This document shows positions 15,240-15,652 of a DNA stretch of 64,000 bases, one piece after another. A model generated the notes under the pieces. That model saw only the letters and a program-made list of their open reading frames with translations, searched no databases and was not told the origin of the DNA. Position 1 is the first letter of the stretch. Each line of letters opens with the position of its first letter. Location of the stretch: assembly GCF_024502345.1 (NCBI RefSeq), contig NZ_JALDNN010000001.1. The stretch is one strand, 5' to 3'. The DNA is from Escherichia coli (lineage in GTDB: Bacteria > Pseudomonadota > Gammaproteobacteria > Enterobacterales > Enterobacteriaceae). The translations under genes and the position numbers were made by a program.

Positions 15240-15352
15240 TGTCTGTAAATCACGACAATGGGTGGTTTACCGTGTCGCTTTCTGGCGACACTTAAATGAT
15301 TGATTTTATTGTAATCTAATAAGTTTATCTTAAGTTGTCTCTTTTTAGCGAC
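15240..15352 (+). promoter_or_regulatory. Three TGTC-N10-GACA sites (candidate GlrR activator binding sites) upstream of glmY
   Basis: tgtctgtaaatcacgaca 15240-15257; tgtcgctttctggcgaca 15273-15290; tgtctctttttagcgaca 15335-15352; all fit TGTC-N10-GACA. Confidence 0.55.
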
Positions 15353-15433
15353 ACAGTGGCTGATTTACATTCAAATAGCGAAGAAGCCATAAATCCCTCA
15401 AAGCAACGTATAATCAGTACGTTACCAAACTAT

Positions 15434-15449
15434 TTTCTTTATTGGCACA
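15434..15449 (+). promoter_or_regulatory. Sigma54 (-24/-12) promoter of glmY
   Basis: TGGCAC-agtta-CTGCA matches TGGCAC-N5-TTGCA; positioned ~12 nt upstream of the glmY 5' end. Confidence 0.7.
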
Positions 15450-15460
15450 GTTACTGCATA

Positions 15461-15652
15461 ATAGTAAGCAGTGGCTCATTCACCGACTTATGTCAGCCCC
15501 TTCGGGACGTGCTACATAAAATTCGAATGACGCACAACAAGGTGCCTGCCGTCCAACTTCTGATATCAGCGTAGCTATATCAACCATCGGGCGAAACGTC
15601 GAGTTAGGCACCGCCTTATTCCATAACAAAGCCGGGTAATTCCCGGCTTTGT
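15461..15652 (+). ncRNA. glmY: Small RNA GlmY
   Basis: Sequence agtggctcattcaccgacttatgtcagcccc... recognised as GlmY; ends in hairpin gccggg-taatt-cccggc plus U-tract (15631-15653); lies between purL and glrK on the same strand. Confidence 0.8.

Follow-up and report, generated by a model that had tools for sequence, protein, structure and literature searches.

Between purL and the two-component genes glrK and glrR, the window (the whole stretch of Escherichia coli DNA that was analysed, 64,000 nucleotides) carries a small RNA that matches GlmY, preceded by a sigma-54 promoter element and three palindromic sites for the activator GlrR. Of 5426 complete E. coli genomes, 5425 contain positions 15100–15800, and several strains are 100% identical to the window over this segment. 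The order mltF, purL, (glmY), glrK/qseE, qseG, glrR, glnB, hmp is found in K-12 and in a strain identical to the window over 15100–15800, and the alignment of K-12 MG1655 with positions 15154–15760 is free of gaps, with 98% identity.

The upstream gene purL (11267–15154, + strand, a 1295-aa ORF) is annotated in K-12 and in the E. coli record that is identical over 15100–15800. It is followed by an intrinsic terminator on the same strand, identified by a terminator scan, with a stem-loop at 15213–15234 (8 pairs, 5 of them G-C) and a T-run extending to 15238. Between the purL stop codon and this terminator lies GCAGCCCGGATGCGGCATTAAGCAC (15176–15199), which is conserved in K-12 and which we take to resemble half of a repetitive extragenic palindrome (REP) element. 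On the other side of purL, the transfer from strain ABWA45 placed the end of mltF with an offset of 1 nt relative to the purL start (window about 11010–11266), implying a probable 1-bp indel in the mltF–purL intergenic region of that strain compared with the window.

The downstream gene glrK (also qseE or yfhK; 15712–17139, +) is annotated in two RefSeq records and encodes a sensor kinase with HAMP, HisKA and HATPase_c domains. Its TTG start at 15712, which an earlier, preliminary description of this DNA had favoured, is the same in RefSeq for K-12 and for the strain identical over 15100–15800. This annotation supports the start, as does the fact that 15 other Enterobacteriaceae keep both the TTG and the N-terminal sequence LKRW(P/S)xFPRSLRQ, in some cases with just 8–11 open codons ahead of the TTG. 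The mechanically derived ORF begins at TTG 15649, within the glmY terminator, an overlap that had been pointed out correctly. Next to glrK lie qseG (yfhG; 17304–18017, +), annotated as a lipoprotein gene (Pfam YfhG lipoprotein, E = 1.5e-80), and glrR (qseF, yfhA; 18007–19341, +), annotated as a sigma-54-dependent response regulator gene. The glrR product comprises Response_reg (E = 7e-32), Sigma54_activat (E = 1e-73) and AAA_lid_14 domains; no helix-turn-helix domain was found at the C-terminus at E ≤ 0.001 in the domain search of this product. Near glmY there is thus a gene for a cognate enhancer-binding protein that has both a receiver and a sigma-54 interaction domain, in agreement with the earlier proposal of a sigma-54-dependent regulator just downstream.

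Elsewhere in the window, Rfam matches were obtained for rncO (2586–2800, +, 259 bits), the ohsC antitoxin sRNA (6213–6289, −, 107 bits), the iscRS stability element (46181–46290, +, 118 bits) and ryfA (53665–53969, −, 314 bits), each of them already known from E. coli. A search of the 64-kb window with ARAGORN gave no tRNA genes.

The GlmY small RNA and its terminator

The 184-nt glmY gene of K-12 (b4441) maps without indels on positions 15470–15653 (+); 183 of its 184 bases match, and the genes on either side are the same. The Rfam model RF00128 (clan CL00011) matches 15470–15617 over its entire length (model positions 1–163 of 163) with 147.1 bits, well above the gathering score of 33 (E = 1.5e-33). 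The RNA is located between purL and glrK, and the predicted fold of 15470–15653 (minimum free energy of −64.2 kcal/mol, z = −5.5, 0 of 200 shuffles as stable) forms stem-loops that end in an intrinsic terminator hairpin at 15626–15653 (+), with a G+C-rich 12-bp stem and a U-tract. The preliminary description had recognized the sRNA and assigned it to 15461–15652, which places the 5′ end 9 nt too far upstream and leaves the 3′ end 1 nt short.

Forms of GlmY of 184 nt and 148 nt have been reported (PMC2377431). The Rfam match spans exactly 148 nt, and the processed form, which is abundant and about 148 nt long, covers roughly 15470–15617. In K-12, GlmY sequesters RapZ and protects GlmZ (PMC7073468); from the near-identity of the two RNAs, we infer that GlmY of this strain would likewise bind RapZ and protect GlmZ. 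Two mechanical ORFs, at 15335–15574 (+) and 15480–15710 (−), overlap this high-scoring structured RNA, are annotated in no record seen and were rejected as genes. The RefSeq annotation of the strain identical over 15100–15800 lacks glmY, as do the RefSeq records of most strains, and base-level coordinates are now placed for both the sRNA and its control region.

The genes glmY and glrK share a strand, with just 58 nt from the terminator to the TTG start, and a study of Proteus mirabilis reports glmY-qseE-qseG-qseF as an operon (PMC8745638). This raises the alternative of a glmY-glrK-qseG-glrR operon for which glmY serves mainly as the 5′ leader, with the sigma-54 promoter chiefly autoregulating the two-component system through terminator read-through and the sRNA as a by-product. 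Such an arrangement is unlikely in E. coli: glrK and glrR of K-12 are transcribed from an independent promoter (PMC3045617; PMC4152352), the terminator hairpin is predicted to be strong, and the trans function of GlmY through RapZ has been demonstrated (PMC7073468). Some read-through into glrK would add to the interpretation of the locus as glmY with its own control region, rather than replace it.

GlrR sites, promoters and IHF consensus sites

The control region contains three perfect TGTC-N10-GACA palindromes, each identical in K-12: ABS1 (TGTCTGTAAATCACGACA; 15240–15257, −230 to −213 from the glmY +1), ABS2 (TGTCGCTTTCTGGCGACA; 15273–15290, −197 to −180) and ABS3 (TGTCTCTTTTTAGCGACA; 15336–15353, −134 to −117). 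These are the only perfect matches in the 64-kb window, and all of them lie inside 114 bp. Dinucleotide shuffles give 0.67 matches per window, with 5 of 100 shuffles reaching three matches anywhere, and triplets confined to 96 bp would be expected approximately 3e-7 times, so the cluster is not a product of chance. The preliminary description had listed the palindromes at 15240, 15273 and 15335, as evenly spaced sites with centres 33 and 62 bp apart. The first two positions are exact and the third is off by 1 nt; with centres at 15248.5, 15281.5 and 15344.5, the first spacing of 33 bp (about three helical turns) is right and the second is 63 bp (exactly six turns), an uneven arrangement. Its account of a tightly packed region in which the first site abuts the purL terminator is accurate, as the T-run ends at 15238 and ABS1 begins 2 nt further on.

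GlrR has been reported to activate the sigma-54 promoter and to bind three TGTCN10GACA motifs, located over 100 bp upstream of glmY (PMC3045617 and PMC4152352, both citing Reichenbach 2009). ABS2 and ABS3 are essential for the activity of this promoter and ABS1 is dispensable, and gel-shift and mutation data demonstrate that GlrR binding depends on the ABS sites of K-12 (PMC3045617). The three motifs in the window likewise lie upstream of the promoter by more than 100 bp, and the published E. coli reporter fusion, spanning −238 to +22 (PMC3045617), would just take in ABS1 with +1 set at 15470. The primary footprint and start-site paper for glmY is Reichenbach 2009 (Mol Microbiol 74:1054); the exact published coordinates used here are those of later papers from the same group and of the K-12 annotation. 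The number of sites, their distance of more than 100 bp and the downstream location of GlrK/GlrR all agree with the published data (PMC3045617; PMC4152352). The window equals K-12 at each base of the three motifs and of the −24/−12 element, and together with the K-12 binding data (PMC3045617) this upholds the proposed activation by GlrR.

The sigma-54 −24/−12 element TGGCACAGTTACTGCA (TGGCAC-agtta-CTGCA; 15443–15458, +) has its GG at −26/−25 and its GC at −14/−13 relative to 15470, 10 bp apart. A scan with TGGCAC-N5-YTGCW returned this element, just upstream of the glmY +1, as the sole match in the 64-kb window, although the count alone is weak evidence, with 21 of 100 shuffles giving at least one match. 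In the sigma-54 ChIP-seq data of K-12, site OS24, assigned to glmY, has the motif TTGGCACAGTTACTGCA (PMC4591121), a 17-mer that is identical to window positions 15442–15458. The element had previously been described correctly but at 15434–15449, wrong by 9 nt; the slip is common to the promoter and the GlmY 5′ end, and the promoter-to-+1 geometry was right despite the numbers.

The hexamer CATAAT (15457–15462, +), positioned 7 nt upstream of +1, can be read from the sequence and overlaps the −12 element. It has been described as the −10 of an overlapping sigma-70 promoter of glmY (PMC3045617); the two promoters share the start nucleotide, and sigma-70 contributes just marginally (PMC4152352). 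A generic sigma-70 consensus scan of 15100–15800 returned no sites because the −35 region is weak, in keeping with the marginal contribution.

Two matches to the IHF consensus WATCARN4TTR flank ABS3. The distal one, AATCAATCATTTA (15293–15305, −), lies between ABS2 and ABS3, and the putative proximal one, AATCAGTACGTTA (15412–15424, +; −58 to −46), lies between ABS3 and the promoter. In E. coli, ABS3 has been reported to be flanked by two IHF-like regions, and the sigma-54 promoter was shown to require IHF as well as the distal site; positions 15293–15305 probably represent "site 1" of that study (PMC3045617). The two IHF sites and the sigma-70 promoter, all published parts of the control region, were missed in the preliminary description. 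Over the whole window, WATCARN4TTR occurs 10 times compared with 3.6 expected, a number reached in 0 of 100 shuffles; the excess goes beyond the two glmY sites, and the matches at 53243–53255 and 53346–53358 are close together upstream of ryfA.

Compared with K-12, the gene order purL-glmY-glrK-qseG-glrR-glnB is the same, and no difference is seen in the three ABS, the cores of both IHF consensus sites, the −24/−12 element, the −10 hexamer, the terminator or the position of +1. The 611 bp of 15150–15760 differ by 17 point substitutions, none at a specified base of any element. Two of the 17 affect the N4 spacer within the distal IHF site, a third is at −2 and a fourth at GlmY +54, which the Rfam structure places in an internal loop. 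As judged from the sequence, the differences from K-12 are strain-level variation only.

Site geometry in other Enterobacterales

The pattern TGGCAC-N6-TGCW-N(10-20)-GCTCATTC was scanned in genome contigs with one genome per species, yielding at least 120 loci. Sorting by the 5′ sequence assigned 47 glmY-type and 28 glmZ-type Enterobacterales promoters among the matches listed, the rest being unrelated. The unrelated class (46 of the 121 listed matches, from non-enterobacterial genomes) served as a negative control; two true glmY promoters, from Pantoea (L060) and Tatumella (L078), had been misplaced in it by the simple classifier, leaving 44. ABS were searched upstream of the listed loci with one mismatch allowed in the eight specified bases. 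Nearly every listed glmY or glmZ promoter has two or three ABS upstream, and the 44 unrelated matches hold four in total (about 0.1 each).

The spacing between the sites, for which a conservation check had been suggested, is nearly invariant in the approximately 75 listed glmY and glmZ promoters. The start-to-start distance is 32 or 33 bp from ABS1 to ABS2, and 63 bp from ABS2 to ABS3 in 44 of 45 glmY promoters (the window counted) and 25 of 27 glmZ promoters among the matches listed. The distance from ABS3 to TGGCAC ranges from 93 to 145 bp in the listed glmY promoters, with modes at 107 bp, as in the window, and 124 bp. The distal IHF consensus is present without mismatch on the minus strand at +20 from the start of ABS2 in 24 glmY and 9 glmZ listed promoters, and the proximal consensus is present without mismatch at −31 from TGGCAC in 8 other listed glmY promoters.

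In Salmonella, Yersinia, Proteus, Pantoea, Photorhabdus and others, the sigma-54 promoters of glmY and glmZ resemble the window in having three TGTC-N10-GACA sites at 32/33 and 63 bp, a TGGCAC-N5-(C/T)TGC(A/T) element and, 20 bp into the ABS2–ABS3 interval, an IHF consensus; they differ from it in that the distance from ABS3 to the promoter is variable. The overlapping sigma-70 −10 hexamer is absent from many genera, and the sigma-54 arrangement has been lost from E. coli glmZ (PMC3045617).

These data bear on the alternative in which a regulator different from GlrR recognizes the palindromes, or the palindromes are repeats due to chance or related to a terminator, with glmY driven by sigma-70 only. 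A putative QseB site is drawn in a published map of the glmY promoter, and glmY expression is not abolished in rpoN mutants (PMC4152352). The alternative is nevertheless extremely improbable: the clustering calculated above and the retention of the ABS and their spacings upstream of glmY and glmZ sigma-54 promoters across Enterobacterales rule it out here, and for K-12 it is refuted by the published gel-shift and mutagenesis results, in which GlrR binding depends on these sites (PMC3045617).

Several loci depart from the common pattern. Three glmY-type loci (L090, L114 and L122) have perfect ABS1 and ABS2 sites and no ABS3 at one mismatch or less, in contrast to the requirement for ABS3 in E. 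coli. In two glmZ-type loci (L115 and L116), the 63-bp site pair is positioned at −132 and −69 from TGGCAC, nearer to the promoter than at any other listed locus; either a further pair with more mismatches lies upstream, or the enhancer is displaced in these species. Among the glmY loci L006–L122, the ABS3-to-sigma-54 distances fall into classes of about 105–107, 113, 122–125 and 144–145 bp. These classes differ by roughly 17–21 bp, and hence not all by whole helical turns, whereas ABS2–ABS3 is fixed at 63 bp.

Control of glmY and assembly of GlrR

The Rfam GlmY match, the b4441 mapping, the ABS cluster, the identity to the ChIP-seq motif, the IHF sites, the GlrR domains and the conservation together indicate that the locus is almost certainly E. 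coli glmY with its published control region. All functional bases are identical to those of K-12, the RNA and the proteins belong to the expected families, and the site geometry is conserved; a strain with identical elements would be expected to behave as K-12 does. The feature is already known, its promoter being among the best-characterised sRNA promoters in E. coli, and the assignment carries little weight as a discovery but is useful for annotation.

Following the K-12 literature, GlrK (QseE), aided by the lipoprotein QseG, would phosphorylate GlrR (QseF), and GlcN6P-free RapZ has been found to stimulate the phosphorylation of QseE/QseF (PMC7073468). GlrR dimers would then occupy the three sites between −230 and −117. 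Phosphorylated GlrR on ABS1–3 probably assembles a hexamer, with IHF bending the DNA and sigma-54 polymerase opening the promoter (PMC4152352); in the window, IHF would bend the DNA at the two sites flanking ABS3, and the GlrR oligomer would use ATP to open the promoter at 15443–15458, with transcription starting at 15470. The overlapping weak sigma-70 promoter would use the same start base. The 184-nt transcript would end at the hairpin at 15626–15653 and subsequently be trimmed to about 148 nt. By mimicking GlmZ, GlmY would sequester RapZ, the RNase E adaptor, so that GlmZ would be spared from RNase E and activate glmS translation, restoring glucosamine-6-phosphate. This agrees with published work in which RapZ is sequestered by GlmY, leaving GlmZ to escape RNase E, with activation of glmS as the outcome (PMC7073468; PMC4152352).

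The fixed ABS spacing and the fixed +20 position of the IHF consensus, in combination with an array-to-promoter distance that drifts by tens of base pairs, raise the tentative possibility that the GlrR site array is a rigid nucleoprotein unit. The arrangement suggests that the distal IHF site folds the ABS2- and ABS3-bound GlrR dimers together, nucleating the active hexamer, a role that would replace or add to the usual looping of the enhancer to the polymerase. The words "spacing" and "helical" do not occur in the text of PMC3045617, and the rigidity of the spacing may not have been spelled out explicitly before. It is a refinement of a known architecture rather than a new system; the near-invariant 32/33- and 63-bp spacings and the fixed IHF position across Enterobacterales are the only mildly new result, and the invariant geometry represents a testable constraint on GlrR hexamer assembly.

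The glmY promoter shares with the classical IHF-using sigma-54 promoters (for example, NtrC-glnHp2 and NifA-nifH) the GG-N10-GC element, an IHF bend and an AAA+ activator of the enhancer-binding class that is bound over 100 bp upstream. The glmY promoter differs in that one IHF consensus lies inside the activator array, between ABS2 and ABS3, and not solely between array and promoter, and in that a sigma-70 promoter with a common start site overlaps the sigma-54 promoter.
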